A program made the position numbers and the translations under genes. A DNA stretch of 63,923 nt, counting the filler, from Folioceros fuciformis (Eukaryota): NCBI GenBank assembly GCA_049999805.1. It is 18 parts of 18 records of this genome, joined end to end, with 100 filler letters (N's around TTAATTAATTAA, not from the genome) between each part and the next. Parts side by side here need not be neighbours in the genome. Positions count along the whole stretch, not along the records: positions 49,953 to 54,149 come from JBNGIO010002379.1; 17 more parts are not named here. One strand, written 5' to 3'. Below the pieces are notes generated by a model that was not told the origin of the DNA, searched no databases, and was given only the letters and a program-made list of their open reading frames with translations. Position 1 is the first letter of the stretch; each line of letters starts with the position of its first letter. Below are positions 383 through 59,844 of the stretch, one piece after another.

Positions 383-3300
383 CTACTTGAAGTAGGCTGA
401 GTAGTCCTTCAGTCCCATGCCTTCCATGTGGTAATAGTGCTTATATTTGGGCAATCCTTTAGTAAGGATATCGGCAGTATTCTCATTTGTCTGTACGTAA
501 CCCAATTTAAGGACACCTCTGTGTACCACGTTGCGGATGTAATGGTGTTGTACCTCGATGTGCTTAGTCCTGGCATGAAATTTCGAACTTTCCACTAACT
601 CTAAGGCTGCGGTGTTATCGCAGAGTACAAGTGTTGGCTTCTCCTGCGGCTGCCCCAAGTCATTGAGGAAGCTGCGTTCCCACTCAGCCTCTTTGGCTGC
701 TTCAGTTAGAGATTTATACTCGGCCTTAGAGGAACTTAGAGCAACAGATGCTTGTTTTTTGCAGCTCCATGTGACAGCTGCTGAGCCCAACAAGTAATAG
801 TATGTAGAAAGACTCCTACGTGCATCCGAGTCTGATGCCCAGTCAGCGTCCATGAAGCCTCGTAAGATAAGTTGTTTCTGGCCTGTGCTCTTATACATAA
901 GTCCATAGGTGTGTGTGCCTTTGAGATAACGAAAGATCCTTTTAACAGCTACCCAGTGAACCCTAGCAGGATTTTCTAGAAATTGCGAAACTGTACTAAC
1001 CGCATACTGTATGTCAGGGCGAGTCCAATTTGCGACGAATATCAAGGATCCAACAGCATGCCTGTAAGGTACATCCTGCATGTCCTTTTTCTCAGCTTGT
1101 GATTGGGGGCACTGATCCCTAATCAGCTTTGTACCAGCAGCAAAGGGAGTGAGCTGGCCTGGCCTCGTCAAGGTTGAACTTTCTGAGTATCTCTTTTATG
1201 TACTTATACTGATGGATAAACAGTAGCCCTTCTTTCCTCACACGAAGCAATTGGATTCCTAGATAGAATTTAAGCTCTCCTATGTCCTTCATGTCAAATT
1301 TACTGCTGAGTTTGGCCTTGACACTTGCTAACAGCGTTTGATCGTTTGTGGCAAATATAACATCGTCCACATAAAGTGCCAAGATGACAACAGACGCTCC
1401 TTGTGTGAGCTTATACACATTGCTGTCAGCAGCATTTTGGACGAAGTTGATGCTAATCAGGTACAAGTGCATCGTTATATACCAAACGCACCCACTTTGT
1501 TTTAAACCGTAGATACATTTGAGAAGTTTTAACACCTTGTTCGGGTGCTGTTTGTCCTCATAGGCCTCAGGCTGCAACATGTACAATTCTTCTTCGAGGG
1601 CACCATACAAGAATGCTGTGCAAACGTCCATTTGCTGTAGGTCCAGATCAAATTCGGCAGCATATGCAAAAAGGATTCTTATGGACTGAGTGCGAACGAC
1701 AGGAGAGAAGGTCTCTTGGTAATCGAGACCTTCAACTTGGGTAAACCCGCGAGCCACGAGCCTTGCTTTGTATCTGGCCACTTGTCCTTGTGCATTAAGC
1801 TTAAGTTTAAAAACCCACTTACAGCTGATTGCCTTTCTTCCAGGTGGGAGGTCTGCAAGTACCCAGGTCTGATTTTTGATGTGGGACTGGTACTCGTCCT
1901 CCACTGCAGCCTTCCACTGTGCACTCTGTGGGCCAGTAAAGGCCTGCTGTAAGGTGGTAGGCTCATCTGGAATTTCAGAGCTAGCAGTAGCCAAGGCAAC
2001 AACTTGCACTAGAGAGGTTTTTCGGAAGTCAATGGATTCATATCGGGGCTCTGCCCATTGGTCAGGAGGTGGCCTATGACGTGTAGAACGTCTAAGCACG
2101 GGCTCGTCATCACGGGATTCCTCAATGTCTTGAGGTGCATGAGGTGTGGGTATGTCCCCCTCATAATCTGGGATGGGGACAGCATCCCCCTCATCAACAG
2201 AGAGATCATTAATCTCAAGTACATCATCCAGGTCAAGCTGCACATTCAGGTTGTTGTCATGATCAGCATTATTGACATCAGGGTGTGGCACATCAAGTGC
2301 AACAGGTGGTTGATCATCGGCAGTAGGAGACTCAGCAGACTCATCTGTAAAATCCTCCACTGGGTCAGCAATTTCAGAGTCCATGTCATCAAGGGGGTAA
2401 GTAGAGGCAGCCCCCTCGTTCTCCAGAACATCCAGGTCTAATTTATCAGTCATATACTGATCTGAATGTTCTGCCGTCTCTTGTGAAGCAGGGGCATGGG
2501 GCTCAAGAAAAGTGACACTTCGAGCTAAGATCATAGATCCAGTTTTGGGGTTGTACAACTTATAGGCCTTAGTCCGTTCGCTGTAGCCGACAAAACGTAG
2601 TCCTTGTGCTCGAGGGTCAAGCTTTCGTCTTTTCTCAACAGATATATAGGCAAATGCCCGTGATCCAAAAACACGAAGATGTAGTAGCGATGGTTTCCTG
2701 CGCCAGAAAACTTCATAAGGTGTCTTGTGAGGGACTGAACTTGTCAGGACCCTATTGAGGATATAGGTGGCTGTTACCACAGCCTCCGCCCAGTAACCTT
2801 GAGGTAAACCAGCCCAAATCAGCATGCTTCTTGTCATCCCAAGCAAAGTCTGATTTTTGCGCTCTGACACACCGTTTTGTTGGGGTGTGTAGGGGACCGT
2901 AAGCTGCCTGAGGATCCCATGCTCCTGAAGTAGGCTGTCGAAAGATGAGTTTATGAACTCCGTGCCATTGTCAGTCCTTAGAGTTTTGACCAGCATTCCA
3001 GATTGCCTTTGTGCAGTTTGAAGCCAGTCCTTGAAAAACTCAAAGGTTTCATTTTTCAGGCGCATAGGAAAGGTCCATGTATACCTGCTGTAGTCGTCTG
3101 TCAATGTGAAAAAATATTGGGATCCACCCAGTGATGGGGAATGGATCTTTCCTGATATGTCAGCATGGACTAACTCAAGCACTTGTGTGGCTCTTTGTGC
3201 AGGTGCATTAGGGAAAGGTGATTCTTTCTGCTTAGCTAATATGCACGACTCGCATAGAGGTAAGTTTTTGAAACATTTGGGCAGGGGTTCTCTATGGCAT

Positions 3301-4841
3301 TCAGTTATAGACATATCTATCAATTTTCGTCTATTCACGTGACCTAATCTCGCATGCCACAAGACTGCTACCTGCTCAAGTCTAAGTGAGGATACACCAG
3401 TGGAATGTACAGCATGCTGACCGGCTGTATGTTGTGAACAGGTTATGTCCAAGCGGTAAAGGGAATTGTCAAGAATCCCCTTAAAGACACATCTACTAGG
3501 AGATGTACTTCTATAGAATAAGCAGTGCTTAGAATCTGCATACATGGTGAAGGTACATAAACGCATGAGCTGACTCATGGACATGAGATTTTTAGCCATG
3601 CTGGGTACGAAGAGAACATCTTCGAGTGTGAGGTCTGTGTTATCTTTCAATTTGAAAACACACGTGCCTCTGCCTTCAATATGCAGACTAGTCCTAGACT
3701 GCTCATCACCAAGGAGAACCTTTTCATGGACATGAACAAGGCTGAGGGAAGTGAACAACTCCCTCTTTTTGCAGATGTGCATGGTAGCCCCGGAGTCGAG
3801 GAACCAGCTCTCATCATCATGTGTCGAACTTGACAAGCATATGGTGAGAATTTTCACTGGTGCCTTTTCGACAGGTTTGTCCTTCACTGCAACACTTGCA
3901 GCAGGTTTAGCCTGCTTCTGGGGCTCACCAGCTTTGCGTTTTCGGCACTCGCGTGCCCAATGGCCAGGTATGCCACACCAATTGCATGTGCCTGGTCGTT
4001 TTGAGCTTGAGGGTTCAGGCCTGTCCTTGGTTTGTGCTGAATTTCCCCCTCTGAATTTGCCCTTTCCTTTGGGGCGAAAATTCATAGCTAATGCCCTTTC
4101 GGCTTTGGATTGTTTGTGTAAGCCTGCCGAAGTCAAGCGGGTTTGCTCCTCTTGGTAGAGGGCTCCGATTACGTCTTCCATGGTGATGGCTGCAGCCTGT
4201 GTCCCTCTTGCAGCAGCTGCTGCAACAGGGCCATTCTGGTAACTGGTGACAAAAGATTGGTAAGAGGGTGGCAGGCTCGTGAGCAGCTGGGAGACAGCCT
4301 CAGACTCCGTCATCTGTGTTTTCGTGATGGACTGAATCTGAGCTCGAAGATGACGAAATTTGCTGGTATGTGCAGCCATTTTGTCACCTTCTTTCATCCG
4401 CAATGTGTAGAACTCCATACGGACAGCGGACAATGTTGCCATTGTGGTTGTGTGGTAGGTCTTTTCAAGCTGATTCCAAATTTCTTCAGCCAATGTGAGG
4501 AATTCAACGTTGGGAATCAAAATTGCATCAAGCCCATTAACAATGACTGCCATAGCCACTCCATTATTATGCTCCCACTTAGCATACTCATCAGGTTTGG
4601 CTACTGGGTCAGGTTTCTTAAAAGTACCATCGACACTCGACCAGACACCACGTGCTGTGAGGATGGTTTTCATCCGTACTCGCCAGATAGAGTAACCAGT
4701 ACCTCTAAACCTATCCTTGTCCTTGACATCTGAACTAAAGGAAACTGACTGTTGTGTTGCCATGTTTCTGATAGGTGCAGGCTGCAAACTAAGGTTGCTA
4801 AAGCTATTGATTAGCGCATTCAGCTGTGAGGTTGTGGTCAT
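383..4841 (-). CDS. Gag-Pol polyprotein with one frameshift near 1150
   Basis: Zn knuckle CNWCGIPGHWAREC, protease WFLDSGA, integrase WHARLGH/CESC/LVHAD/RTDNGTE/QQNGVSER, RT YKARLVARGF/QMDVCTAF/LYVDD, RNase H DADWA/CDN/RTKHIE. ORFs 1119..4877 and 383..1171 join at EARPA/TPFAAG. First ATG at 4841. Confidence 0.95.
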
Positions 4842-5187
4842 AAGGCACCTATGAGCATCAAAAGCTATGGTTTTCAAAAAAATGCTGGACCCTGCTCATG
4901 CTGAGCTCCTCAGCATACCACTCATGTTTGCCGTGAACAGACTTATGAAACCCTAAAAAATTAAAAAATGTTTCATGTTCAAAAGGCATGGACAACGCTT
5001 CATGTTCACAAACCCTAACTGCCCTTAATTGCCGTGTCATGGTGGTGTGAAATGACAGGTTAGCTGCACCAATCAAAAGAGCTACATGCGAGAATCTGCA
5101 GGGGATGCAAGGAAAGAGGCACCGCTTCAAATCTGGGCAGGGTTGGACCCTGCCACTCTCGCTCCGCTCCTGGGCAGCGGAAGTAGG

Positions 5188-5895
5188 TCATAAGGTGATG
5201 CAATCAGGCCCTGAATGGGGGCATCCTGATTCAAGATCCTTCAACTTTGTATTCATCTGCTTCAGGAAATCAGCTACATCATCGATGTCTCTCTCAATTT
5301 CCAGCGTACAGTTAGAAATTTCTCTCTCTTTTGCAGAATCCTGACTCGGAACTCTGCTCTTGAGCAACTCCTGGTTTTCAATGGTGTGTAGCAACAGTTG
5401 TTCTACTCTGGCAAGGAGATCCTCTTTGCATGCATCAGCAAATTGCCTCCTTGGTCCAGTACAATTGCCACAACTGCTGGTATTCACAGATTGTGCTGCA
5501 AAACGTTGCACCCCAGTAGGTATAGCCTCCCGTCTATGATTTGTGTGGTCAAGGTGAGGCCTAAAAAGGAAATCTGGTGGAGCAGATGCTTCTGGCCTTG
5601 GGACAAAGAATAGATCGGGGTTTTGTCCTCTCCTAAAACAGCGTTGTCGATAAAGGCGATCAACCTCTCGATTCCTGTTTAAGGGATGCGTTCGTGATGC
5701 TCCGGGCCTACTGTTAAGTGCAGCAAATCGTTGCAGCCAAAGGGCAGGGTAGTCGTATTCGTGGAGGTCCAGCGCCGAGTCAAGATCAACTTGTAGTGGC
5801 GCTATACGTCTTGGTGGGTTGGTATCTTGTCGTCGACGTTGTCTAGGAAACCCACCACGACGCGAACCTCTATGCGAGCCACCCTGCCTCGGCAT
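5188..5895 (-). CDS. Extra 5' ORF (ORF0) of copia element 1, 235 aa, unknown function
   Basis: Uninterrupted ATG-to-stop ORF starting about 30 nt after the PBS, same strand as gag-pol. Arg/Gly-rich N-terminus, CGNC, heptad-rich C-terminus. Confidence 0.7.
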   Translation of the reverse strand: MPRQGGSHRGSRRGGFPRQRRRQDTNPPRRIAPLQVDLDSALDLHEYDYPALWLQRFAALNSRPGASRTHPLNRNREVDRLYRQRCFRRGQNPDLFFVPRPEASAPPDFLFRPHLDHTNHRREAIPTGVQRFAAQSVNTSSCGNCTGPRRQFADACKEDLLARVEQLLLHTIENQELLKSRVPSQDSAKEREISNCTLEIERDIDDVADFLKQMNTKLKDLESGCPHSGPDCITL

Positions 5896-5925
5896 CTTCC
5901 AGGAATTGTGTTAGGAGACAGAGCA

Positions 5926-5939
5926 TGGCTCTGATACCA
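5926..5939 (-). promoter_or_regulatory. Primer binding site for tRNA-iMet 3' end
   Basis: Minus strand TGGTATCAGAGCCA, 2 nt after the LTR end. Confidence 0.95.
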
Positions 5940-10228: not shown

Positions 10229-11218
10229 ATGTGTGAAGCTGTGACGACGCTGGACAAAGCTGGGAAACCTTGGCGGCTGGCGCGACAGTCTCTCCGCATG
10301 GATGCCGTGTTGAAACCGGCCGTGCTCTGCGTGCCGAGCGCGGAGCTATGGCGGAAATGTGTGAAGAGCTGCGTCGCCGTGTCGCACCATTCTGCGCAGG
10401 CGGCGAAGCAGGGCTCGAGGTGGCTGCCCGTTGAGAAGGGCAGCTGCGTGGTGAGGCGGGGAGGATTGCTGCTGGGGAGAGTGCAGAATTACTCCACGGC
10501 GGAGGCGGCGCTGGACACCGGGAACACGGGTAGGTTTTGCAGCTGGCCGCGCTAGGTTTTGCTTCACGCTGGTGGATTTGCGTTCCTTGCATGGTGGGAT
10601 ACAGCCGCACCATGAATGTTTGTGTTTTGCAGATGTGGAGAGTCCGAAGCTAGGGCAGGAGCCGGGTCAGGTGAAGCCTCCTGGTATGTGTGGTTTTGTG
10701 TGGTGACGTGTCTGTGCCGAGGTTGGACAATGTGATTTAGGGGTTCCTGGATTGCAGAGAGCAAGGCGGAGAGCCTGTGGAGGGTGTTTTTCAATGATCC
10801 GAGTCGGTGGTGGGACGATAGGAGTAAGAAGGTCTGTGTCTCGTGAAACCCTGGGCTGGGAGTGGTGAGAGATTCGTTGGTTTGGATGATGTTTTGGTTT
10901 GCTGAGAGCACGGAGGTGTTTGTTGTTGTGCCTTGCAGCGGTCACCGCAGGATCCGGATTTCCAGAAGAAGGGGACGAAGGAGCCGCTGTGGATTGACCA
11001 TCCCTCGACGCCGGCTTGGGTGAAGGGGGAGTTGGAGGCTTTGCAACAGAAAAGGGAACAGGAAAGGAGACCGCCAGGGCGTTATGGTGGAGGAGGGCCT
11101 GGTGGACCGCCGGGAACCGGGAACGTCTTGGGAAGAAACTTGATAGGCAATGGGAATATCTTGGGGAGGAACATGGGTGGGGTAGATAGAGAGAAACTTT
11201 TTGGGAAGAACTTTGCGG

Positions 11219-11254
<36 letters not shown>

Positions 11255-11967
11255 AGTATGAGAAGAAGGTGGACGCCGACGACAATAATGCAGACGCTGT
11301 CGAGAAGAAACTCGAGGTCGTCCAGAAGAAAGTGGTGGAGGACGATGAGGAGGAAGACGACGAGTGGATCGATGATGGGGATGACCTCATGGCCCGGTTG
11401 AGAAGGAAAGAGAAGCAGGCCGTGAAAGAGAAGACAGCGGATAAGGGTGGATCTGTGAACCATACTTTGGACCCGGACCATAAGTCGGATTTGGAGGAGG
11501 CGGTGGATGCTTTGGAAAATGAGGTGAGGGACCTCAGAAAACGGCAGAAAGAAAAGGAGAGGGAAGAGAAGATAGCGAGAGGAGAGATTGATCCAGAAGA
11601 TGAGAATGAAAAGGCTGAAAAGGCAGCCAAGGCAGCGGCTCCAATAGTGAGGACCCGGGGGAAGGCCGATGGTTATATGAGGAGGTACCCTCGCCACAGC
11701 AGGCAAGCGATGTTGGACGATGAAGGAGGAGACGGGGACTACAACCCAGCTGCATACCACAGTGAGAAATTGGCCATTGCATATGCGCTCATGAAATCGC
11801 CTGAGGGCCACACTATCCGCATTGTGAAGAACCTGAGGGTATGTATAGATTGCCATGAGTTCACCAAGGCTGTAACTCTGGTTACGGGAAGGGAGATCAT
11901 CGCCAGGGACAACACACGTTTCCATCATTTCAAGGACGGCAAGTGCTCCTGCAACGACTATTGGTAG
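10229..11967 (+). CDS. PDF-motif (OSB-like ssDNA-binding) plus DYW deaminase fusion protein; exons 10229-10529, 10633-10683, 10758-10831, 10939-11967; about 484 aa
   Basis: Three GT-AG introns (phases 1,1,0) keep the frame. The exon 3/4 junction gives [47 protein letters not shown] (OSB PDF motif). C-terminus HSEKLAIAY...[10 protein letters not shown]...[23 protein letters not shown]. Alternative ATG at 10298. N-terminus looks like a targeting peptide (inference). Confidence 0.85.
11219..11252 (+). repeat. A34 homopolymer inside exon 4 (poly-Lys)
   Basis: 34 consecutive A; the reading frame is preserved as assembled. Confidence 0.9.
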
Positions 11968-18410: not shown

Positions 18411-18800
18411 TGTTGAGATTAATTAGTGCTAATCCAGCTTATTGAGTTTGTGCTAATTTGTGGTAAGAGTGATTAAGGTTATGATTAATATATATATATA
18501 GCTTATTAAACTTTGCTATGTTGGGCAAAAGAAGTATTGTAGGGTTTGGTTGGGGTCATTTATCCCATATTGGGCACGAAATGAGAGTGCCACCCATAGG
18601 TCCATAAAAGAAGGGATGAACCCACTTAGAATATGCAGTCTAACTCCCTCTTCACTTGTATTGTGTTGTTTTTGTAATTCTCCTTTTTTTATTTGAGTTT
18701 AAGAGCCTTGTTATAGTGCTCTTAATTTTGGGACTCTGCATCTTGCTTTAACTAACTTGTTTTAACCTCCTTTGAGCATGGCGGGGGTGACATCTCAACA
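18411..18800 (+). repeat. LTR family E (copia)
   Basis: TGTTGAGAT...ATCTCAACA terminal inverted repeat. Its 3' part is the near reverse complement of 53982-54149. Confidence 0.7.
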
Positions 18801-20235
18801 GTAATCACCCATTACACGTGTAAGGCCTTCATCTTACACAAGGGGTCCACTAGCCCCAAGCCACCCAATCGCTGTTGTTGGATGACATGATTCCACGCCA
18901 CTCTATGAGGGGAATTTACCATCTTGATAGACTTGCCCCATAAGAAGTTAGCCATCACCTATTGTAGCCTCTTAATCTCTGACCTAGTAGAAGCCCATTA
19001 GAAGAGGTAGTACCACAAGGAAGTTGACAGAATATGGTTAGTCATGACCAGCCTTCCAGCCAAGTTCAGGTCAAGGAGCTTCAGACTTATAGCTTTCCGA
19101 ATAAACCTGAGGAAGTTCCAACCAATTTCTTCATTCTCCTCCACTTCTTGGAATGGCAGACCTAAGTGCTTATGGGGCGAGCCAACCTGAACCCTAGTAA
19201 TGTGCTTGATACATTCGGGCACTTCCTCCTCCAAATTAATACACATCATTTGGGTTTTACTCCAATTCACTTTGCATCCAGAGAGCAACCCAAAAACCTA
19301 AACCTGCTAGAGAAGGGCCTGTAGAGATGCCTCCATAGCAGATGAAAAGAGGAGAGTGTCATCCGAAAATGCTGATATTTGCAGCTGAGACCCATCTGGG
19401 AGGTGCAAGCCTTTTATCTCTAGGTCTAGTTTCACTGCCCTTAAAAGAAAGCCAGTAACAATGACGAATAAAAAGAGTGCTAATAGATAACCTTAACAAA
19501 CGGAACGGGAAATATCAAACCTCTCCGTAAAAGCCCCATTGACTACAACTTTTGCGCCTACGTCTCCACATAAGAGGGCCACCCACCGACATAAGTTGTT
19601 CCTTAACCCAAAACTCCGAAGGCACCTCCACAAGAAAGACCATTCCACATAATCTTAAGCCTTGTAGAAGTCCAAGGAGACAAAGATAGTCAACTTACCT
19701 TCTATCAAGGCATGATCCTTGGCTTCCCGCAGGAGTAGGAGATTGTCTAGAATACATATGTTCTAAATGAAACTCCTTTGCTCCTCCTCTATCCATTCAT
19801 CTAAGAAAGGTTTGATCCTATTGGCGAGAACCTTAGCCACTACTTTGTACGTCATAATGAGCAAAGTAATCGAGCGCCAGTTGGAGATCAATAGGTGCTC
19901 CATACTTAGGTAGTAGAGAGATTACTCCTAGATTAAACCACTTGCCCATTGTACCTTCTTCCCACATCATACTCACTACCTCCATGAACAATGGTGCCAT
20001 AAAATCCTAGCCCCAGATGAGAAATTCTGAAGGGATGCCATCATGTCCTGGCAACTTATTCCTTAGCATGAACTTCAAGGCTTGTACAACCTCCTCTGAA
20101 GAGATAGGTTTATTGAGCAGCATGCGTTATGTCTCGGAAACCTTGGCAGGAAGTCGACCTAGGAGGCAGACCAAATCCGCTCCCACCCTATTGCTTTGCC
20201 TAAGCTGGAGAAGATTTCAACATAGAAGCATGTGA
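18801..20235 (-). mobile_element. Non-LTR retrotransposon (L1/Tx1-like) ORF2 RT remnant
   Basis: KLPGHDGIPSEF, WRSITLL..YKVVAKVLANR, FSDD, SGCKVNWSKT, KHLGLP, LNLAGRLV, with many stops. Confidence 0.85.
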
Positions 20236-24192: not shown

Positions 24193-24292
24193 NNNNNNNN
24201 NNNNNNNNNNNNNNNNNNNNNNNNNNNNNNNNNNNNTTAATTAATTAANNNNNNNNNNNNNNNNNNNNNNNNNNNNNNNNNNNNNNNNNNNN

Positions 24293-24656
24293 TCCCCAGG
24301 CTGTAGGCCGAGTCCCGCGCCTGCCCCGCCAACCTCACCGTGGGAGGCACCGCCTTCCCCTTCCCGTCCTTGTATCTCGCAGCCACATTCCACCAGGACT
24401 TCACGCTGGGCGATTTCGCCCCGCTCAGCCCCACGGAGCGGAAGAAGCCGGCAATGATGGCCTGTTGCCGCGGCGTGAAGGCCCCGTAGAAGAGCACGTA
24501 GGCATTGATGGCGGCCCCGCCCGCCACCAGCACCTCGCCCCCGTGGTACTCCAGCAGCAGCGGCTGCTCCGGCACCAGAGTCTGCGCCGATGGCGCAGGC
24601 AGGCTGAGGCTCACCACCATCGCCAGGAAGCAGAGCACCAACCCGCTGGACGCCAT
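24293..24656 (-). CDS. EXORDIUM/PHI-1 family secreted protein, 5' part
   Basis: Signal peptide, LEYHGG, FYGAFTPRQQAII..F, PSVKSWW, YSLG; runs into the contig edge. Confidence 0.9.
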
Positions 24657-32147: not shown

Positions 32148-33557
32148 ATGTTGACGCACCATCCTCCCCCTCCTCCACCAGTGCCTGGATCTTTTACACC
32201 TATCTTCACGTCAGAGTTAAAAGAAAAAGACAGGTTTACGGGACAAAAATATGAGCTATGGAAGGTGAGGATGAAGTCCACTCTGCTTGCTAGAAATGTC
32301 TGGGAATATGCTGATGGTTCTATTCCAGAACCAGCATCTACAGCAACCAAAGGAGAGAAGGATCATTGGGCACATGCTAACAGCGTATGCATGGCCCTCC
32401 TTATTGCTGGTCTTTCTGAAGACCTCCTCCCCGACGTAGAATTCCTCACCAAGGCAAGTCAAATATGGCAACACCTTGCTGATACTTATCAAGTGTGCAA
32501 TGTCATGACGTTATGTGCACTTCGCTTAGAATTCTATGGACTGAAACTGAAAGAAGGGGATAAGGTACTTACACATTGCAACAAGTTTCGTCACTTGAGA
32601 GCTCAACTTGCTGCTGTAGGCACCAAAATGGATGAGATTGATGCAATGGCTCGATTGCTTACGAGCCTCCCTCCCAGCTACCAGAATTTTGTATCTTCAT
32701 ATAATGTTCCCATTAGAACAGCAAATGTTGCTGTTGCTGCTGGACAGGCCTCTCCACTCACCCTTGATGGGGTGATGGGCGCGTTATACCAGGAAGAGCA
32801 AAGCAGGCTCATGTCAGGGTCTGGATCCAAGTCCAAAGCTGACCGAGTGTTTTCTGCTTTCCGTGGTAAACCATTCCAGAGGGGCAGGCCAAGACATGTG
32901 ATAGGTACACATCCTCCTCGCCATGAGACTTGCCATGAGACTCGCCATGAGGCCGGTCCGTCAACTATTAAGCGTCAGGGCACCTGTAACTGGTGTGGTA
33001 TCCCTGGACACTGGGCGAAGGAATGCCGTAAGAAGAGAGCTGGTGAACCTCCGAAGGCTCCCATAACTGCATCAACTGCCACTGTTAGAGAAAAACTTTC
33101 CAGTGCAAGTTCTTCAAAGCCAGTGGTAAAAATACTGACTGTTTGTCTTACCTCATCGACACATGACACATCTTCTTGGTTCTTGGATTTTGGAGCCACA
33201 GCACACATTTGTCATGATGAGACCCAATTCACTAGTCTGCAGCTCACATCAAACGTGGAGTGTGTTTACCTGGGTGATGAACACATTGACACGAGTTTAC
33301 AGATCCTTGGTCAAGGTTGCTGTAAATTCAGACTGAATGACAAGACTGTCCTTACATTATCTGATGTCCTCTATGTGCCTCGTATGGCCAAAAACTTGTT
33401 ATCTTTGAGCAAGTTGATGAAGACCCAGTATTTTCTTCTCCAAGTTTCAGATACCTCCTGTTGCTTCTATCGGAACTGTGCTCCGTCTCTACGTGTGTTT
33501 CGAGCACATCCTGAACAGGACTTGTATCGCCTGGACATCAAATGCATCCTCAGTTCT
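32148..33557 (+). CDS. Copia gag-protease, open frame truncated by family A insertion
   Basis: KEKDRFTG, CNWCGIPGHWAKECRK, WFLDFGAT, MAKNLLS. Confidence 0.9.
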
Positions 33558-36002: not shown

Positions 36003-36074
36003 TATCAGAGCCAAGTTTCGATCCTGGGACCTGTGGGTTATGGGCCCACCACGCTTCCGCTGCGCCACTCTGAT
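36003..36074 (-). tRNA. tRNA-iMet (CAT), initiator
   Basis: ATCAGAGTGGCGCAGCGGAAGCGTGGTGGGCCCATAACCCACAGGTCCCAGGATCGAAACTTGGCTCTGATA: plant initiator tRNA with one T-stem C>T (G-U pair). Upstream TATA and CAA, downstream TTTT. Confidence 0.97.
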
Positions 36075-41735: not shown

Positions 41736-42259
41736 TCAAGTGTTGTAGGCCGGCCATGTCTCATGGTGTCTGGTAAGGTTGTAGGGGGGAGATACCCAAG
41801 AGGGGAGTGTGTTCCCTTCTTCCTTTTGTTTGGGGTTAGTTTAGTGACTCTTGCCGGGTAGGGGGAGTCAGTAGGGAAGTGTAGAAGGTAGTCGTGTCGT
41901 TGCTAGTTGCTGGTAGTTGCTGATGTTGGTGCTGGAGTGAGAGAGTGAGTGAAGTGTGTGAGAGAAGTCGCAGATCTGAGATGTTAGAGTCGTTGTAGTG
42001 ACTGGAGTGAGTTTGGGGGCACCGAGAGAGGTGCAGCTGACCGCCGGACAGCGAGGCCTGTCCTACGCCTGATCGGAGCTGGAGGGGAGCCCTCGAATCC
42101 ATCATCGAGTTCATCAAGTCCGACCCTCCATCCACAGCAGCAAGGAACCCCATCGCTCCTTCGTGGGAACGAAACCCAATGTCTCAACGACAGTGGGATA
42201 AGTGTGGCCACTAAAGGTGGGACCCTTCGGCAATCAGTGCCCGGGGTTTTGCCTCCACA
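41736..42259 (+). repeat. LTR family C 3' end (also 49953-50126, 57115-57788)
   Basis: Three copies end CAGTGCCCGGGGTTTTGCCTCCACA with unrelated flanks. Confidence 0.85.
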
Positions 42260-44740
42260 TTGACATAATCCCTTCACATACTTCTTCCATCACTTGAGTT
42301 AGGTCCGAAGTTAATACCTTACTTCTAATCTAGTCACAAGGGTAGTGTTCTTCTCCATGAGTTTATGTAGTTCATAGTCTTAACGCGAGGAAGTGCGACT
42401 AACTCTTGGTGGCAGCCGATTTGAAGGTGGTTGAAGCTTATCTTCAACTTTGGTCGTCTTCTTTGGTTTCTGCAGCTTTCAAGACACAATAACCTACAGG
42501 TGTTTGAGGGGGAGAGTTAGAAATAAGACAGAGCATGTTGGTTAGCCTAACTAGACCTAGCTATAGGTAGTAGTTAGTTAACTAGCAGGCTAGTTGAAAG
42601 GACACATCTCTTGGTGAACTGCTATTTAAGGCCTACCGCTTATCCACCTTAATAAGAATTGCTTAGTTTTTTTCGTTGATTAGACAAAGCGCATCCACTT
42701 ATGCATTTCCAACTAATTTTTCTCAAATCGTAGCAATAGTATCGCAATAGGCTTTGAGTTGAGGCTTGCAAGGCAACCCATAGGTAGGGATTTGTAGCCG
42801 AGAAGGCAGATAGTGGGGCGCATGTGGTATGGGCCAAATCAGGGGCAGTTTTAGTGGGGTAGCATGAACAACCCAGGGATCTGGTCATCATTAGCCAAGG
42901 CGCCATTGCAATGCAAGGAGGCTGCTGGCTGCTGGAGGGCTAAGCCTGTGGAGATCACAAGGGTGCAATAGTGCAAGGAGCATGCTACTCTAAAGCAAAT
43001 TGAGGCAAAGCCAAAGGGCCGTGGTGTGAGGACATGCCAGCAAATCTGAAAGCAAAAACTTGAGGCCACTGACTCTATGAAGGGAGAATCAACGAGACTA
43101 CTGCTATCAATGAGAATTAGTGGGTCGTGATGCTGAAAATCAAGGTCGAAAGATGTAGGATGGCCGATCATGGGCACGTTGGTGGAGGGTGTCAAGAGCT
43201 GTAGGAGGCGCGTTATCAATTAGGTGTCAGGCGGGCTATTGGTCAACGAGGAGGTGCCCTTAGTGTGCTGCTAACCAGGCCAGCAAGGGGCAAATCGAGA
43301 GCAGGGCGTAGGGATTTTGGCAAGGGGTCGAGGCAAGATGTGGAAGCGGCATCTAGTTGTTGAGCGGGTTTGCTAGAAGAAGTGGGGCTGCAAGGAGCTG
43401 GAGTGCGACCTTGTTTGATTTGTCTGTGGGCACAAATTGGAGTTGTTGTGAACTTAGGTTGAAGATATGAGCCCTAGCTCCGTGATTCTTGAAGAACGCC
43501 GGTCTAGGACTCACTATGGATTGAGGGACGGCATGTGGAAGAGGCAACCTACCCCCATTTCCCAATTCTCATCCCCCTTTTCCATTTCCCCATCCTTTTT
43601 TCTCCTTTCTCATTCCCCTTTTCTTTTCTTTTTATTTTTCTTTTTCTTTTTTTCTTTTCTCAATTATCTTGGAGTTTCTGGCTTTTCTTTTTTCCTCTAC
43701 GTATCTAACCTACTTGACAGTCACAAGTCTGTCTAAGCACCCTTGGGCCAAGCTTGGGTAACCGTGGCAACCTTCTGATGGATATTGTTTTTGTTGCAGG
43801 AATAGCCGTTTTTAGGCCTACCTCCAGCTACTACTCCCTCTCCTCTCCAGTCACTTTTCTTTCTTATCCCATTGTCATCATCAACACTAGGGGACTTTCA
43901 TTACATGAGTGTGTATGTTAGTCCCCTAGGTACTTTCGGCTATACCAGCATCTACCAATTTTACTAGTTTGCCTATGAGACAGGGCGTTTGCTTGCTTGC
44001 TATCTTAATTATTTAAAATCTAGAAGGAGGTTAGCTCATGCAACTCCTCACTAACACTTATGTTGTGTTCTTCTTAGTGTGACACTAACTTGCCTTTGGT
44101 AGGTTTAACCTATCGCCCGTCGGCCAGTAGAACACTTAATAGGACTAATTGGTCACCTCGAGGGGCTGAAGGATGTTCTCCCATTAGAGCTACACACCAG
44201 TCGTCATGGGGGCTATGGGGGTAGTGCTGGTGGAATGGAGATGGCTATTCCGCGGATAGGCCTTGCTGCCAAGAGGATAGTTGACAAGAAGACCAAGGAG
44301 GTAGCCACCCAAGAATCAAGATGTAGTGCCCACCAAATGTAAGAGATCAATCAACAATCAATGGTCTAGAAAAGTTTAGTGGCCTAATACCACTACAAGT
44401 AGTGGGGTCAATAAGAAGAATGGNNNNNNNNNNNNNNNNNNNNNNNNNNNNNNNNNNNNNNNNNNNNTTAATTAATTAANNNNNNNNNNNNNNNNNNNNN
44501 NNNNNNNNNNNNNNNNNNNNNNNGCTGGAGGGCTATCCAGTCCTAGTGTCCACACTATGCTTGGAGGCTGCAGGGCGTGAAGCCATTGTGTCCCAATTTC
44601 CAGGAAGGGACTGAAGTGGGAATCTTGAAGAGCTGAGGTGAAGGAGAAAGGGACTGAAGTGGGAATCATGAAGAGCTGAAGGACTGAAGAACAGGAGTGA
44701 GTTGGGCGAGCTGACTTAGGGGGTAGGCTAGGCTTCTAGC

Positions 44741-49474: not shown

Positions 49475-50126
49475 GCATATAAATCTTCGGGGAGGAAGAA
49501 GGGTAAAAAAAAAAAAAGTCATCAAATTATCCCTCTTTTGCTTCACAAGTGTGAACCTCCAAAGTTTGGAGTAGAAGTTTGTTTTGGTTGAAAAAGAGTT
49601 AATAGTAGTTCCCTTTTCTACTTATTTTCCCTAATTTTTCTTTATTTTCTGGTCATTTTTCCTATTTTTCTTTGTGCTAATTAGGTTAATTGGCTAAGAA
49701 ATAGTCGGTTTTGTTATAAGAGTGGGTATAGGTTTGGTCTTAGACCTGGGAAGGTTTAGGTCCGGTACCAAACCATAGGGTCGGGAAAGGTTGTGTCTAG
49801 GTCTGGTGATTAGTTTAATATTTATTAAAGATGTATAATATTAAATGATTAANNNNNNNNNNNNNNNNNNNNNNNNNNNNNNNNNNNNNNNNNNNNTTAA
49901 TTAATTAANNNNNNNNNNNNNNNNNNNNNNNNNNNNNNNNNNNNNNNNNNNNGAGCCCTCGAATCCATCATCGAGTTCATCAAGTCCGACCCTCCACCCG
50001 CAGCAGCAAGGAACCCCATCGCTCCTTCGTGGGAACGAAACCCAATGTCTCAAACGACAGTGGGATAAGTGTGGCCACTAAAGGTGGGACCCTTCGGCAA
50101 TCAGTGCCCGGGGTTTTGCCTCCACA

Positions 50127-52517
50127 CTGATCCTCAGACAGATGAGCATATGCTGTTGCACCAAATATTCTGAGATGATTGATTCTCGGCTTATGGTTTG
50201 TCCAGCGCTCATATGGAGTTGCTCCTGTGAACACACTGGTAGGAACTCTGTTCCTGATGTACACTGCCGTACATACTGCTTTAGCCCAGTATCCTCTCGG
50301 AAGTCGTGCTTGCTGGAGCATTGCTTTTGCTGATTCCTGTGTATGCCGATTGGAAATTTCAGCTATGGGATTTTGTGTTGACGTGTATGGAGTCGTCAGC
50401 TGTCTGGCTATGCCTTGTCTCTTGCAAAAGCTGGTGAAGGCATCTGAGATGTACTCGCCTCCGTTATCACTTCTCAAGACTTTCAGCAGCTGACCTGTTT
50501 GTCTCTGTGCAAACATAACAAACTCCATGAAACAATCCAGAGTTTGACCCTTCTGTTTGATGGGATACACTACCGTGTATCGGCTCCAGTCATCTATGAA
50601 TGACAGAAAATATCTGGCTCCACCAAGTGACATTGTGGACATAGGTCCACATATATCTGAGTGTACTAGCTCCAAGAGCTTGGTAGCACGTGTTGGATTA
50701 CTGTCTTTGTATGGAGCTCGGTGGTGTTTGCCAAACACGCACGCCTCGCAGAAAGGCTTCTCCGCAGGCTTCATCAAGAACCTTTCCCGGTAAAGTGTTT
50801 CACTGTTGACCATCATATTCAATTTGTCAAAGTTAGTATGTCCCAATCGCGCATGCCACAGCCTGGCATCCTGCTCATCCTTCTGTGCCTGTGTCAGGTT
50901 CGCCAATGGTCTCCCATGCCCATACTGAATATCTAGCTTGTACAGATTGTGTTCTGGTGTCCCAATTGCAAAAACTTCTGATTTGTTTGCCTGGTCAACA
51001 ATATGGCACTGACCATTTTCACACATGGTGCTCAATTTATGCTGTACGTCTAACAGGTAAACTGACACCAAATTCTTGACCAAGGTTGGTACATGCAGAA
51101 CCTCTAGCAAGATTTCAACTCTACCAGTTGTGTTTTGGACAGGAACTTTGCCTATTCCTTTAATTGGCAGACCTCGGTCGTCACCAAGGAGCACAACCTG
51201 ACCATTTGGGACCTTTCTGTACTCAGAGAATGCTGATCTAGTATGGCAAATATGTGACGACGCACCTGAATCGAGGTACCATGCATGTCTGTATTGTGGT
51301 GTGGACACCATATATACTGCTAGAACTGTGCTAGGCTTTCTAGATGCCATGTTGGCTTCAGGTGGAACTGTACGGCGAGGCTCACCCGCCTTCTTTTTCC
51401 TGCACTCCGCCTCCCAATGGCCTGGGATCAGGCACCAGTTGCAAGAGCCCTTTTTCTTGTTAGCAGATGATGTTGGGCGGCGCTTGAAACTCCCACTGCC
51501 ACCAGCATTCTGGTTCTGTGATCCCTGTCGTGGTGGCTGCCTTTTTGAGCCTCTATTCGAAAAGAGAACTCGATTTGAGGACTCTCCTCTGGAGGAGGTA
51601 CCACCCTTGCTTGCTATCCTCGTGGATTCTTCCTCCAGGAGGGCTCCAATCAGGTCTGAGAGGGAAACTGCAGGTGTCTGGCCTGCTGGTGTGGCCTGGG
51701 CCACATTCCGCATATGTGTGCAGTGATTGCTCACAAAGACTCGATAGCTATCAGGCAGGGATAGGAGAAGGGCCACAGCAGCCTGCATCTCAGTGGTTGC
51801 AGTCCCACTTGAGGTAAGCTTAGACCTCAACATTCTGAACTTGATGACGTGTTGCTCCACTGACTCGTGCTCTTTCATCTTACAGTTGTAGAAGGCACGA
51901 GTTGCACTCACCATTGATGATCCATTCGACACTCTGTAAATTTGGTTCAGGGAGTCCCAAACATCCTTTGTTGTGTCAGCATCTTGAGTATGGTGCATCA
52001 TTGACCCGTCGAGAGCTGACTGAATGATGCCCAAGGCTCGAAGATTTGATTTTGCCCAAGCGGCTATATCAGCCTGGGCTGCTCCTTGCGGAGGCTTGGG
52101 CACTGTGCCAGTCACGATGCCCCATAGGTCGTGCTCTCTCAAGATGGTCTGTAATCTGAGAGCCCAGATGTCAAACTGGGTGCCATTGAACCTATCTCTC
52201 TCCTTAAAGTCTATTTTCACATTTGTGACTGTGGTTGTATTGTTTGTGACAGTCTGCGGTGGCAGATTTGCCATGTTTCCAATAGCTTGATGTGAAAGGG
52301 CTGATCCTGCTTGTGCTACAGCATACGCCTGAGCTAGCTGCGCAACGGATACAGCATGCAAGCTTGTGCTTGACTGTGAGGAGGCAGTCTCCTGATTTAG
52401 GCCAAGTGGGTCAACTAGGTAAGGATCTGGATTTGTATTTCCACCCCTTCCTGTATCACGACCTCTACGCCTGCCTCTTGGGTTTCTGATACCCCTACCA
52501 TGGTTGCTATTGGACAT
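50127..52517 (-). CDS. Gag-protease-integrase of element 2 (open, truncated)
   Basis: CNWCLIPGHWEAEC, WYLDSGAS, WHARLGH, VHSDICGP, RSDNGGEY. Confidence 0.95.
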
Positions 52518-52626
52518 GAGCTAGCTTTAGGAAGATGCCTGATCATGGGTGAGCGAGAAGTAGATTCTCGTTCCCATGATTAAAGGTTACAGACTGAGGC
52601 TGATTTATCTCCACGTTTCCCACAGG

Positions 52627-53100
52627 TTAGGCCTGGTTGTTATGCAGATTTGTGAAAATAGGTACCCTGGTTAGCAATTCGATCTGCTGTGTGAGGGTCA
52701 CTATCTGTCTATGGGAGTTTATGACCCTGTCTGTCAAGTCACACACCTGTTGCCTATGCCTCTCTGATTCTGACCTGAAACTTGTGTATAACTGCTGAAG
52801 GGAAAGGTCAGGCTTGGGAGGATATGTGTTTGCACAAATTTTGCAGGTGGGGATTTCGTTTGCTTTCTGTGCACTAATTGCAAGTGCTCGATTTATCTCC
52901 TTGCGAATTTGATTCCTAAGACTCGCTAAGGGATCTGGCTGTACAGGTTTCTGAAAAAGACTGCTCTGCCTTTGTGATGCAGACCTGGAAGACAAATTAA
53001 AAAGGTGTTGAAGATTTTTATGTTGCTCTTCTACACTATGTCCAGGACTGCATGCAAACGAATCTAGGGGTATTTTACCCTTCCCACGTGCTCTCGGCAT
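52627..53100 (-). CDS. Extra 5' ORF (ORF0) of element 2, 157 aa
   Basis: Intact ORF between PBS and gag: MPRARGKGK start, CKIC, C-terminal heptad repeats. Confidence 0.65.
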   Translation of the reverse strand: MPRARGKGKIPLDSFACSPGHSVEEQHKNLQHLFNLSSRSASQRQSSLFQKPVQPDPLASLRNQIRKEINRALAISAQKANEIPTCKICANTYPPKPDLSLQQLYTSFRSESERHRQQVCDLTDRVINSHRQIVTLTQQIELLTRVPIFTNLHNNQA

Positions 53101-53396
53101 CCCTACTGTCTACAAATAGCAATGAAAGACTGTTTCTGCTAGAACCATGTGCCCCATGTCCTTTGTACTAACCAGCGCTGCTCTAATTGCAGAGATTACA
53201 CAACGGAATTGCTCGTCGGACAATCTCATGATGTAAGTTTTGCACTGCTTAGATAACGACAATGGGAAATCCATGTTCTAATTAGAAAATTTTTGTGTGC
53301 AAGGTATTAAATTTGTCCATTTGATTCCTGTTCAGGAACCAGGAAGTGCTACGCCTCAACAGAGGGCGTATTGGCAATTTTTAACACCCAAAAACA

Positions 53397-53410
53397 TGGC
53401 TCTGATACCA
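53397..53410 (-). promoter_or_regulatory. PBS for tRNA-iMet 3' end
   Basis: TGGTATCAGAGCCA directly after the LTR CA. Confidence 0.95.
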
Positions 53411-53671
53411 TGTAAAAATTCTAGATTGAGATCGATAGATGCACACAAAATTGTAGAAAAACAAGTAAGTGAATTAGGCGTGGCCGGGATGGCCTTAAGG
53501 CATGGAGAGAGTGTGCACCGCTTCATCGTAGCGGTTAGGGTTGCGACTCTCTCTAAAGACGTGACTCCTATGAAACGCTCCCAGCGTTTCATACCCCGGC
53601 TTTATGCCCTAATAATAAATAATTAATTAAGTCTGGTTATTAAATGCATAACCTATTCATGCTTTTTTTCA

Positions 53672-54149
53672 TATCTTGTTCTCATACAAAGCCTCTAATT
53701 TCAGCCAAGCCTCTCTTGCTCATTTGCAAGTGGTCACATGCATCAATTGTGCATCTTCTAAGTTGAAACAAATATTTGCAAAGGCCTTGCCTGCAAGCTC
53801 ATCCCACTTGGGTTGTCTCTCCACTTCATTTGGATGCTCCTCGGTCCTCGACACAATTCCCCAAAGGCCTTTTTCAGCCAACAACATTTGCATCTTGAAC
53901 TTCCACAAGTTGAAGTTGTCACCTCCAAACTTTGAGATAACTTGTAGAGTGACGGTCCCTTGGGTGTGTGGGCCCATAACCTGTTGAGATGTCACCCTCG
54001 CCATGCTCAAAAGAGGTTAAAACAAGGTAGTTGAAGCAAGATGCAGAATCCCAAAAATAAGAGCACTATAACAAGGCTCTTAAACTTAAATAAAAGGAGA
54101 ATTACAAAAACAACACAATACAAGTGAAGAGGGAGTTAGACTACAAATA
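53672..54149 (-). mobile_element. Copia element with family E 5' LTR (53982-54149), half-tRNA PBS and gag start; host of element 2
   Basis: KFGGDNFNLWKFKMQMLL...AWLKLEALYENK, interrupted by the element 2 LTR. Confidence 0.85.
53968..53981 (-). promoter_or_regulatory. PBS complementary to the tRNA-iMet anticodon arm (half-tRNA primer)
   Basis: GGTTATGGGCCCAC immediately after LTR end CTCAACA; complementary to GTGGGCCCATAACC of the tRNA at 36003-36074. Confidence 0.9.
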
Positions 54150-57014: not shown

Positions 57015-59844
57015 NNNNNNNNNNNNNNNNNNNNNNNNNNNNNNNNNNNNNNNNNNNNTTAATTAATTAANNNNNNNNNNNNNNNNNNNNNNNNNNNNNN
57101 NNNNNNNNNNNNNNTGTACAGTGTCTGGTAGGATCGCGGGCAGCGTGTTGCCGGTTGTATAATGTCTGGTAGGATCACAAGGTGTAATGACCAGGGTGTA
57201 GGGGCTTGCCCCTAGCTCTTGATTGTTAAGGATGTGTCTTTCTCTCAACCTGTCCACTCTTGTTCCTTGCTTGGACAAGTGCTACAGGCCGACCATGGCT
57301 CATGGCATCTGGTAAGGTTGTGGGGAGGAGATATCCAAGAGGGGAGTGTGTTCCCTTCTTTCTTTTCTTTGGGGTTAGTCTAGTGACTCTTGCCGGGTAG
57401 GAGGAGTTAGTAGGGAAGTGTAGAAGGTAGTGGTGTCATTGTTAGTTGCTGGTGTTGGTGCTGGAGTGAGAGAGTGAGTGAAGTGAGTGAGGGAAGTCGC
57501 AGATGTAAGAGGTTAGGGTCGTTGTAGTGACTGCAGTGAGTTTGTGGGCACCGAGAGAGGTGCAGTTGACCGCCGGATAGTGAGGCTTGTCCTACGCCTG
57601 ATCGGAGCTGGAGGGGAGCCCTCGAATCCATCATCGAGTCAATCAAGTCTGACCCTCCATCCACAGTAGCAAGGAACCCCATCGCTCCTTCGTAGGAACG
57701 AAACCCAATGTCTTAACGACAGTGGGATAAGTGTGGCCACTAAAGGTGGAACCCGTTGGCAATCAGTGCCCGGGGTTTTGCCTCCACACCCACCCCAAAC
57801 CCTAACTAATTATTTCCGGCGCAGGCATCGCCGCGGGTTTCCACCCATGGGTTTCTGCCCTAGACCTTCCAAACTCACAGAGCTGGCGTATTCCATGCTC
57901 CCCACACATGCAAGGGCTGATCCCTTGGGAACAAATCCTTGTAGATCAGCCACACCTCCCCACACACTCATGCAACATTCCACACACACAAAACACACAC
58001 AAGAGCTCTAGATCATAGTTATTTTCACAGGCCTACCCCCCAAGGGTCTCAATCTCCAACACTATCCACCAATCTTTAGCAAATCTTCAGCAATCTCCCA
58101 CAATCCCTCATGAGCTTCAACAAGCTCCCACAGCCACTCACAAACACTTCGAAATCTTGCAGAAACTCTCCGAATTTTGCATCCAATCTTCAGCATTCTT
58201 CCTCCATTCTCTAGCAATCTTCTCAGCCATTTCCTCTTCAAGTCTTTAGCAACGTTCCAGCTCTTCCAACAACTTTAGCAACCTCTCATAGTCCTCCACA
58301 AACGTCCAGGGGTTCCTAAGAAATTCCCCAGCAATCTTGTCCAAACCTCAGTAAACAATCACCCAGCAATTTCTCAACGATTTCTTAGCAAATCTCCTCC
58401 AGCAACCTTCCACGGTTCTCTTCAATCTTCCAGCTCTCTCTCCTCACCAGATTCAGCACGCAGCTAATGGTTCAGGAAATAAGGGAAGGAGGAAATCTCC
58501 CTCCACTCCAGCAACGGTAGATTCGTCCCTCTCCTCAGCTACGGACAAAAATCAGTCCTTACTCTCTTCTTCTCAAATCACTCCAGCTCCTCAACCTCCT
58601 TCTCCTCCTCCTCTCACTCACTCTCAGCCTCCTCTTTCTCCTTCTCTTCTCACTCACTCTTCACATGCACTCTCCAACACTTCTTCTTCTCAACACACTC
58701 TCTTCTCTCACACACTCCAGATTAAAAATGCAATCAACCAGTTCAGGGAATAAGGGAAGGAGAAGCTCTCCCTCCACTCCAGCAGCGGTGGATTCGTCCC
58801 CCTCATTTTCCACTGCAAACACAACTGGCCGGGAACAAGGGAAGGAGGTGCTCCTTCCACTCCAGCAACAGTGGATTCGTCCCCCTCATTTTCAGCTGTG
58901 GAGCAAAAATCCTCAACCCCCCCTAGGAGCGTCTTGCACTCAATGCCTCACCTAGACCTCTCTAGTCCCGCCATGGACAGCATAAGGGATCTCAACCGGG
59001 AGGAGTCTCAAACATTTGCTGATTGGAGAGGCACCAACAGGCACTCTTTGTACAGAGTTCCCAAGAGTGGGAGTCACAGCCTGTCATACAGTCTAGCTCT
59101 AAAATAGTCAACTTTAAAAAAGGTGCTCTTAATGGCAGGCGGCACCAAGTTAGAATAGCATTTTACGAAATCTTATTTAAATACTATTCTAGGATGCAGC
59201 CACTCCTGGTTTACCTTGGCGCCACTCTCTCTCCTCCTATTTATTCTTGTGGCCCACCCTCCCTTGCCACACAAAATCTTCAGGCTCTCCCTCCTTGCTG
59301 CTGATTGGTTACAGGCTTTCCTTCCATGCTGCTGATTGGACAAATCCTTCTAAAAATATCCACCTCACTCCTCCTGCTGGCTGACCCATCCTGGCTGTCC
59401 ACTCTATGCCCTCCAAGGATGCTGGTTGCCTCCTGTCACTCTGGCTGCAATTTTTGCTATTCCCAGCCTCCTGGTGCAGGTAGGGTTTCAGCAACCGTCG
59501 TCTCCCTTCGGCAACCGGCGTTGTCCCTTTGGCTACCGGTAGTCGCTTCGGCTACCTCCGTTGTCGCTCGACTACCGGTAGCCCCTTCGGCTACCGGCGT
59601 TGTCCTTCGGTGATCGTCGTCGAACTTCGGCTACCTGCTGTCGTCGAGTCACAGCATCCTTGTTTTCCAGCCCAAGTCCACAACTACCTACTCCCAAGCC
59701 CCTTTCTTATTTCTTATTTTTAGGGGGGGGTGCATATATAGACCNNNNNNNNNNNNNNNNNNNNNNNNNNNNNNNNNNNNNNNNNNNNTTAATTAATTAA
59801 NNNNNNNNNNNNNNNNNNNNNNNNNNNNNNNNNNNNNNNNNNNN

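Follow-up and report, generated by a model that had tools for sequence, protein, structure and literature searches.

Extra open reading frames (ORFs) of plant LTR retrotransposons have been reviewed by Vicient and Casacuberta (PMC7264820), and the survey of Neumann et al. counts those of at least 250 codons (PMC6317226). In the portion of the lineage table of that survey considered here, the shares of elements with an eORF-5'F are 33% for Tekay, 23% for TatII and 21% for Ogre, which all belong to Ty3/gypsy; for Ty1/copia it gives figures for SIRE (74% eORF-3'F), Bianca (5, 2) and Ikeros (4, 6) only, the column positions of the latter two being uncertain. The accompanying text describes plant Ty1/copia elements as structurally uniform, with a typical extra ORF in SIRE only, downstream of pol (PMC6317226). 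Extra ORFs upstream of gag are a recognised and unexplained feature of some plant Ty3/gypsy lineages. In Tekay, according to the sections consulted, the 5' additional ORF (5' aORF) is conserved in 500 of 523 elements, and its proteins contain nuclear-localisation signals, alpha-helices and disorder and keep their position while showing no sequence similarity between species (PMC11728184). The ORF0 proteins of Retrosat2, RIRE3 and RIRE8 are, in the comparison quoted, 30-34% similar, as against 69-70% for ORF1 (PMC3485330). In the open-access literature that we searched, no description was found of a sense ORF between the PBS (primer-binding site) and gag as a typical feature of a plant copia lineage.

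The DNA analysed here, referred to as the window, is a stretch of 63,923 bases made up of 18 contigs of about 1-8 kb with 17 spacers between them (window positions 7822-62852), each spacer consisting of N44, 12 bases and N44; it is thus not a continuous piece of chromosome. The host is judged to be a land plant because the window contains a gene for a PPR-type protein whose end is formed by a DYW deaminase domain (11173-11967, plus strand; Pfam, 9e-33) and one for a Phi_1/EXORDIUM-like protein (24237-24656, minus strand; Pfam, 7e-19). A host gene for an initiator-type tRNA-Met (36074..36003, minus strand; Rfam RF00005, 50.1 bits; called by ARAGORN as tRNA-Met with anticodon CAT) is also present, and this tRNA is presumed to be the primer of both elements described below. 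Fragments of copia gag-pol were found on most contigs. The two elements compared here, named element 1 and element 2, are located on different contigs with no known physical link between them.

Element 2, which is classed as a Ty1/copia element, lies on the minus strand of the 4.2-kb contig at 49953-54149. By reading of the sequence, its 5' LTR is 261 nt in length (53411..53671, minus strand), starts with TG, ends with CA (53412-53411) and has an imperfect terminal inverted repeat (TGAAAAA / TTTTTACA). The boundary was inferred from this single 5' LTR, as the 3' LTR lies outside the contig and no second copy of the LTR was found in the window; the outer edge was set by loose ends at 53674, seen in three runs, where contigs of the flanking repeat diverge. 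This flank (53674-54149) is 93% identical to 18631-18801, holds a fragment of another copia gag (54004-53720) and occurs in extreme abundance in runs under several organism labels, with a summed contig depth of at least 1e5 in run X7; element 2 appears to have been inserted into it. Directly after the LTR, a pattern scan located the PBS, TGGTATCAGAGCCA (53410..53397, minus strand), and the call is secure because its 14 nt are complementary to the last 11 nt of the tRNA-Met of the window plus CCA. An initiator tRNA-Met PBS is thus placed beside an LTR that ends with CA.

The gag-pol of element 2 (50131..52517, minus strand; ATG at 52517) comprises gag with a CNWC knuckle, a protease-like barrel and an integrase, and among the Pfam domains Retrotran_gag_2 (3e-29) comes first, followed by Pol_BBD, then gag_pre-integrs and finally rve. 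The contig stops short of the reverse transcriptase (RT), so that the integrase-before-RT order of copia is visible in element 1 alone, where rve (553-653) lies ahead of RVT_2 (990-1229) according to Pfam. The gag-pol frame of element 2 is open to 50131, beyond which the end of the contig is taken up by a repeat that is abundant and unrelated to the element. This repeat is present in three contigs (49953-50130, 42087-42263 and 57616-57792) with 92-99% identity and is very abundant in public run X1; at 49953-50130 it had lengthened a listed ORF of 845 aa by 50 aa too many.

Between the PBS and gag, element 2 has a leader of 893 nt, 53% of which is filled by an ORF of 157 aa, here named ORF0-2 (52627..53100, minus strand; ATG at 53100, stop codon at 52629-52627). 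It is the intact sense ORF upstream of gag that had been reported by the first-pass annotation, and it was confirmed at 52627..53100 on the minus strand. The ATG of ORF0-2 is 296 nt away from the PBS, and 109 nt separate its stop codon from gag; the gag frame contains a TAG two codons before the ATG of gag. Being separate from the polyprotein, in sense orientation and between LTR/PBS and gag, ORF0-2 has the position of a 5' additional ORF. At 157 codons (235 for its counterpart in element 1) it does not reach the size of at least 250 codons applied to 5' aORFs by Neumann et al. (2019), and with this threshold their survey would have counted neither of the two ORFs.

The length of ORF0-2 exceeds what is expected of its leader by chance, in agreement with the initial proposal that the ORFs are not accidental. 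When the 893-nt leader was shuffled with preservation of dinucleotides, 10 of 5000 shuffles reached 157 aa (median of the longest ORF, 52 aa), and for element 1 none of 5000 leader shuffles reached 235 aa. Under a first-order Markov null, 0.004 and 0.0002 such ORFs, respectively, are expected per leader. No tandem repeats were found in the leader of element 2, ORF0-2 is not of low complexity, and the antisense strand under it contains no ORF of 60 aa or more. By our own estimate, 64 kb should contain one or two ORFs as large as ORF0-2; it is the placement within a defined sense interval of 0.9 kb, together with the recurrence of such an ORF in a second element, that makes the case significant.

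The second case is provided by element 1, on the minus strand as well, which has its PBS at 5939..5926 (matching the tRNA-Met 3' end plus CCA over 14 nt), its gag-pol at 4841..1119 and a leader of 1098 nt. The ORF used for comparison, ORF0-1 (5188..5895, minus strand), encodes 235 aa. Both elements have the CNWC knuckle, the initiator-tRNA-Met PBS and a long sense ORF between PBS and gag. Their Gag-Pol proteins are 37% identical over 708 aa, and a 16-nt stretch at the PBS is the only sharing of the leaders at the DNA level, which bears out the description of element 2 as having a different LTR and a diverged Gag. The layout, on the other hand, had been called the same in both, and this is true of orientation and of location between PBS and gag but not of distance: ORF0-1 starts 30 nt after its PBS and ends 346 nt before gag, as against 296 and 109 nt for ORF0-2.

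The predicted product of ORF0-2 is a hydrophilic, basic protein of 18 kDa (pI 9.9). It begins with MPRARGKGK, has CKIC at residues 86-89 and includes HRQQVCDLTDRVINSHRQIVTLTQQIELL in its C-terminal part, so the translation agrees with the Met-Pro-Arg plus basic residues and the CxxC noted before. A single-sequence AlphaFold2 model of low confidence (mean pLDDT 60) places helices at 23-42, 59-80 and 101-145, the last with a pLDDT of about 72-77. Seven of eight consecutive a/d heptad positions in the C-terminal helix are hydrophobic, and this part may plausibly form a coiled coil. For ORF0-1, the model (mean pLDDT 45, again of low confidence) predicts disorder in the N-terminal two-thirds and helices at 148-181 and 187-223. 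In both predicted proteins a CxxC is found 3-12 residues before a long predicted helix, together with a hydrophobic a/d run of seven out of eight. The motif of ORF0-2 is a lone C86-x2-C89; the other cysteines (17 and 120) and the histidines (21, 27, 32, 115, 130 and 153) have no recognised spacing, so that the four ligands of a zinc finger are not assembled, and no zinc finger was matched in Pfam at E <= 1.

As a control for the shared architecture, 116 chance ORFs were drawn from the Markov model of the leader. Among them, 95 had a pI of at least 9, and the basicity of ORF0-2 therefore means nothing as evidence. A CxxC was present in 13 of the 116 and a proline-free heptad run of seven out of eight in 7; only one had at least four Lys/Arg in its first ten residues, and none combined CxxC, heptad run and a pI of at least 9. 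Since the shared features were picked after looking at the two proteins, this comparison gives modest support only.

The two ORF0s are not detectably related in sequence. BLASTP gave an E value of 2.9, i.e. no similarity; the Smith-Waterman scores were under the shuffle mean and were reached by 2704-2938 of 3000 shuffles in three scoring schemes, and the score of a semi-global alignment was reached by 1201 of 2000 shuffles. Only the first three codons are shared, and the sequences thus do not qualify the two ORFs as a single protein family. Those codons are part of the exact 9-mer GATGCCGAG (Met-Pro-Arg), which opens both ORFs (5888-5896 and 53093-53101, both on the minus strand) and, with both strands considered, has no further occurrence in the window. 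Given an ATG, the chance of six more matching bases is about 1 in 4000 by our own estimate. The 9-mer is the one specific hint of either common descent or a shared start signal. Within the window, neither tblastn (to E 20) nor blastn (word size 7) detected a further copy of either ORF0 or of the leaders, and the two ORF0s showed no similarity to the Gag-Pol of their own elements.

Database searches gave no relatives of ORF0-2: there were no homologues in a search of 5.8 billion clusters or by phmmer against 1.84 billion representatives, nothing in Pfam, a best E value of 0.73 among PDB sequences, and a best E value of 2.3 for Foldseek against PDB with the pLDDT-60 model. ORF0-1 had no protein database match either, the ESM Atlas returned no usable match for either ORF0, and nothing was found among viral contigs for ORF0-2 or the Gag-Pol of element 2. 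A match to a metagenome locus (L001) was rejected; the locus encodes a bacterial sensor histidine kinase, and the match, made via the dimerisation helix (seed QQVCDLTD, 27% identity), was considered to be due to chance. The Gag of element 2 (residues 1-400) itself had no match at E <= 1e-10 among 8000 candidates scored. Because even this Gag yielded no close relative, the blank result for ORF0 tells little on whether relatives have the ORF.

Coding tests on ORF0-2 are weak. The log-odds of codon usage, trained on the gag-pol ORFs of the window, came to 0.055 per codon for the annotated frame; two of the other frames were higher, at 0.077 and 0.082, and at this length the measure does not discriminate (gag-pol windows, 0.116 +/- 0.060, n=57; off-frames, -0.013 +/- 0.057, n=285). 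In favour of coding, the annotated frame was by position-specific base composition the most gag-pol-like of the six in both ORFs; 9.3% of 86 and 5.1% of 138 chance ORFs reached the observed scores. The recognition value of ORF0-2 in the ESM Atlas, 1631, is under the 2300 reached by 91% of known families and does not decide whether the gene is real.

An alternative to a coding role is that the leader, long and structured, functions as non-coding RNA in packaging, in dimerisation or in the control of translation, with the frame an untranslated relic of an insert that once was coding, or an incidental by-product, and gag reached by shunting, internal entry or a shorter RNA. The poor coding statistics, the lack of homologues and the dissimilarity of ORF0-1 and ORF0-2 all agree with it, and so does the folding of the leaders. 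The whole leader of element 2 folds better than its shuffles (z -6.4 with 20 shuffles and -4.6 with 22), and so does that of element 1 (z -5.4), as compared with -1.3 to -2.2 for gag-pol windows of equal length. The 5' part of the leader of element 2 (53101..53396) gave z = -2.9 against 100 shuffles, and the ORF0-2 stretch gave -3.7 in sense and -3.25 in antisense. An RNA-level role could thus account for the leader sequence being kept. The fold signal is not specific, however, since excess structure is also found in antisense and some gag-pol windows reach z values of -2.8 to -2.9. Nor does RNA structure explain the missing stop codons in frames of 157 and 235 sense codons, and a common 9-mer start, a CxxC and a heptad helix would not be expected in non-coding sequence. 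We regard such a leader as the main rival explanation, less probable than a coding role but, at about one third, one that has to be taken seriously. Should the frame be a relic, the finding would reduce to an unusually long and structured copia leader, which is of modest interest.

The distribution of AUGs, a further point in agreement with a structured leader, bears on any coding interpretation as well. According to a list of the ATGs, seven AUGs follow the LTR of element 2 before that of ORF0-2, counting two that overlap the PBS; several of them are in strong context (A at -3, G at +4). Two more are in the 109-nt spacer between ORF0-2 and gag (52518..52626, minus strand), giving nine or more before the gag AUG (52518-53396). 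In element 1 just the two PBS-overlapping AUGs precede ORF0-1, and eleven are located between ORF0-1 and gag (4842-5187). With so many AUGs ahead of it in both elements, gag is unreachable by simple scanning of a full-length RNA, and the nine or more in element 2 mean that ORF0 and gag are not both readable by such scanning of one RNA.

ORF0-2 might also be read as an exon that is joined by splicing to gag as an N-terminal extension or belongs to a longer leader ORF, the TAG at 53112-53110 being intronic or a private mutation. But for this one TAG, the ORF0-2 frame is open upstream to an ATG in strong context at 53274, and if a 63-nt GT..AG stretch (53172..53110), whose donor is of the GTTAGT type and whose acceptor is rich in pyrimidines, were removed, the TAG would be lost in frame and 194 aa would result; likewise, a GT after codon 145 and an AG three bases before the gag ATG would join ORF0 to gag in frame. 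Every TAG ends with AG, however, and in-frame GT is common, so such sites are expected by chance; the 57-codon upstream extension has a chance of about 6%, as estimated by us from the stop frequency. The candidate joints are drawn from the sequence by itself, and the Met-Pro-Arg start held in common with element 1 favours the ATG at 53100. It is thus very unlikely that ORF0-2 is an exon of this kind.

The copies of element 2 were compared by matching contigs from four public runs (Logan) to 49953-54149. In run X1 (organism A, which may be the sample behind the window), near-identical contigs bridge from gag across ORF0 to the leader upstream, one over 52473-52946 with 3 differences and another over 52917-53440 with 4. 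The same run contains a 2268-nt contig of about 84% identity that runs from pol through gag into ORF0 (50576-52260, 52365-52579 and 52673-52842) and is 81% identical over the ORF0 piece 52673-52842, and a further contig that has 56 differences and 16 gap positions over 52917-53467. In run X5 (organism B, a different label), the stretch 52751-53160 is matched by a contig of 414 nt with 59 differences; its identity of 85.6% lies within the 80-93% of the gag-pol pieces of that run. Among the indels listed for the whole comparison (12 of 51), the only ones of this contig in ORF0 are one lost and one gained nucleotide, separated by two bases, which compensate each other so that the frame is kept. 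The region of about 52550-52690, i.e. the last 15 or so codons of ORF0-2 and the spacer, is unaligned in the diverged copies of both runs, the joints being 52579->52673 in X1, where 94 other letters stand in place of 93 nt, and 52549->52689 in X5. Among the 40 of 1062 base differences that are listed, two are in ORF0-2, a synonymous one in Glu at 52855 and a Ser to Pro at 52989; these are too few for a selection test. Run X3, guessed to be RNA, has no contig on the ORF0 bins, which has no bearing on expression. Summed contig depth was lower for the leader than for gag-pol, but no weight was given to this because such depth is unsuited to ranking parts.

As diverged copies under two organism labels have the leader segment attached to gag, the comparison argues that, for at least these two labels, it has long been a stable component of the element family and not a one-off capture. 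This speaks against the idea that the segment is host or foreign DNA acquired once by the element lineage through transduction and passively carried. That plant LTR retrotransposons can capture fragments of genes is documented in the review, where such transductions are described as one- or few-copy events (PMC7264820), and an ORF without a relative among retroelement proteins, or similarity to its own Gag-Pol, might be expected from it. On the other side, the 1.84 billion representatives yielded no host-like homologue, and a second, unrelated element has an ORF at the same place. A captured passenger is very unlikely and the least probable of the origins that we weighed.

A survey of the leaders of related elements, which the first-pass annotation had put forward as a check, covered the gags of the window. 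The CNWC knuckle is present in five gags of the window. Two of these (47684 and 54983) have no upstream sequence in their contigs, and a third (ATG at 32148) has 585 nt upstream without a PBS and without an ATG-initiated ORF above 57 aa. The absence of a long ORF ahead of this third gag was counted against the coding reading. Nothing comparable to ORF0 precedes either the gag at 28246 or the decayed one at 21171. Overall, a long ORF is present in two of five gag-upstream regions and lacking in the other three, which are incomplete or decayed. As a separate observation, upstream of the intact gag at 32148 a frame without stops extends over 66 codons, beginning at the edge of the contig (31563-31762, plus strand), and closes 386 nt before gag, a spacing similar to the 346 nt of element 1. 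This frame may represent the end of a third leader ORF; by our estimate, such a frame would arise by chance with a probability of about 10%.

On balance, we tentatively favour, with a confidence somewhat short of even, the reading that ORF0-2 is a 5' additional ORF (aORF, or eORF-5'F) of a land-plant Ty1/copia element that is, or recently was, coding for a small, basic, hydrophilic and mostly helical protein. It is favoured because of its position, its orientation, a length beyond chance and its persistence beside gag in diverged copies. Such a protein might bind nucleic acid by its basic N-terminus, or this part might serve as a nuclear-localisation signal, and the 45-residue amphipathic C-terminal helix could drive self-association. 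The protein would then act on the RNA or the particle of the element, whether as a chaperone, for targeting to the nucleus or to counter silencing; such roles are a matter of speculation for the Tekay 5' aORF proteins too. ORF0 and gag would have to be separated by leader splicing or a second transcript, or gag be reached by shunting or internal entry.

The first-pass annotation went further and saw in the two ORFs a lineage-wide, fast-evolving accessory gene. What stands of this is that the ORFs are unlikely to be due to chance, are in sense position and, in element 2, are joined to gag in diverged copies; a similarity between them, with an E value of 2.9, was not obtained. The lineage-wide gene is therefore a reasonable hypothesis rather than a finding. 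In its strongest form, a land-plant copia clade with the CNWC knuckle and initiator-tRNA-Met priming (leaders of about 0.9-1.1 kb) would have a true, fast-evolving leader gene with a persistent Met-Pro-Arg start, a CxxC and an oligomerising helix, the product of which handles the RNA of the element in the manner of Rev or ORF1p, gag being made from a differently processed RNA. This is improbable on the present evidence, though it deserves some credence; if it were true, these copia elements would be two-gene retroelements with retrovirus-like leader processing. A conserved copia leader gene, if confirmed, would have been missed by surveys restricted to at least 250 codons, would widen the range of retrotransposons that encode accessory proteins and would raise the question of how the gag behind ORF0 is translated.

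LINE-1 ORF1p and retroviral Rev are small, arginine-rich, self-associating proteins that have a basic stretch and a helical oligomerisation region, are encoded before or next to the polymerase genes and act on the RNA of their own element. By analogy, ORF0-2 could work in a like way; no sequence or fold match to them was obtained. Among plant elements, the SIRE eORF-3'F ('env-like') resembles it as the best-known lineage-typical extra ORF in plant copia which, in the survey data considered here, is very heterogeneous, with 19 sequence groups at a constant position (PMC6317226), but it is downstream of pol, whereas ORF0-2 is in the leader. The eORF-5'F of the Ty3/gypsy non-chromoviruses Ogre and TatII (21% and 23%; PMC6317226) is similar in being an extra forward ORF upstream of the polyprotein; as described there, it differs by belonging to elements of 12-15 kb with other PBS types and by its size of at least 250 codons, some of these ORFs having known domains. 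There is also a likeness to the ORF0 or 5' aORF of the Tekay-clade chromoviruses (rice Retrosat2, RIRE3 and RIRE8; sunflower Tekay group 2), described in the sources consulted as a sense ORF between LTR/PBS and gag without a known domain, its product having a biased composition. ORF0-2 is like it in being basic, helical, domainless and unlike its counterpart in element 1. The differences are that Tekay is Ty3/gypsy and the present element Ty1/copia, that the protein of sunflower Tekay 13-2 is given as about 400 aa as against 157 aa, that phmmer found no sequence relationship to ORF0-2, and that conservation across copies is known for Tekay. It is most likely among the possibilities considered, at a probability a little under one half, that ORF0-2 is a known kind of extra ORF that occurs here in a copia element and below the size cut-off of the survey.
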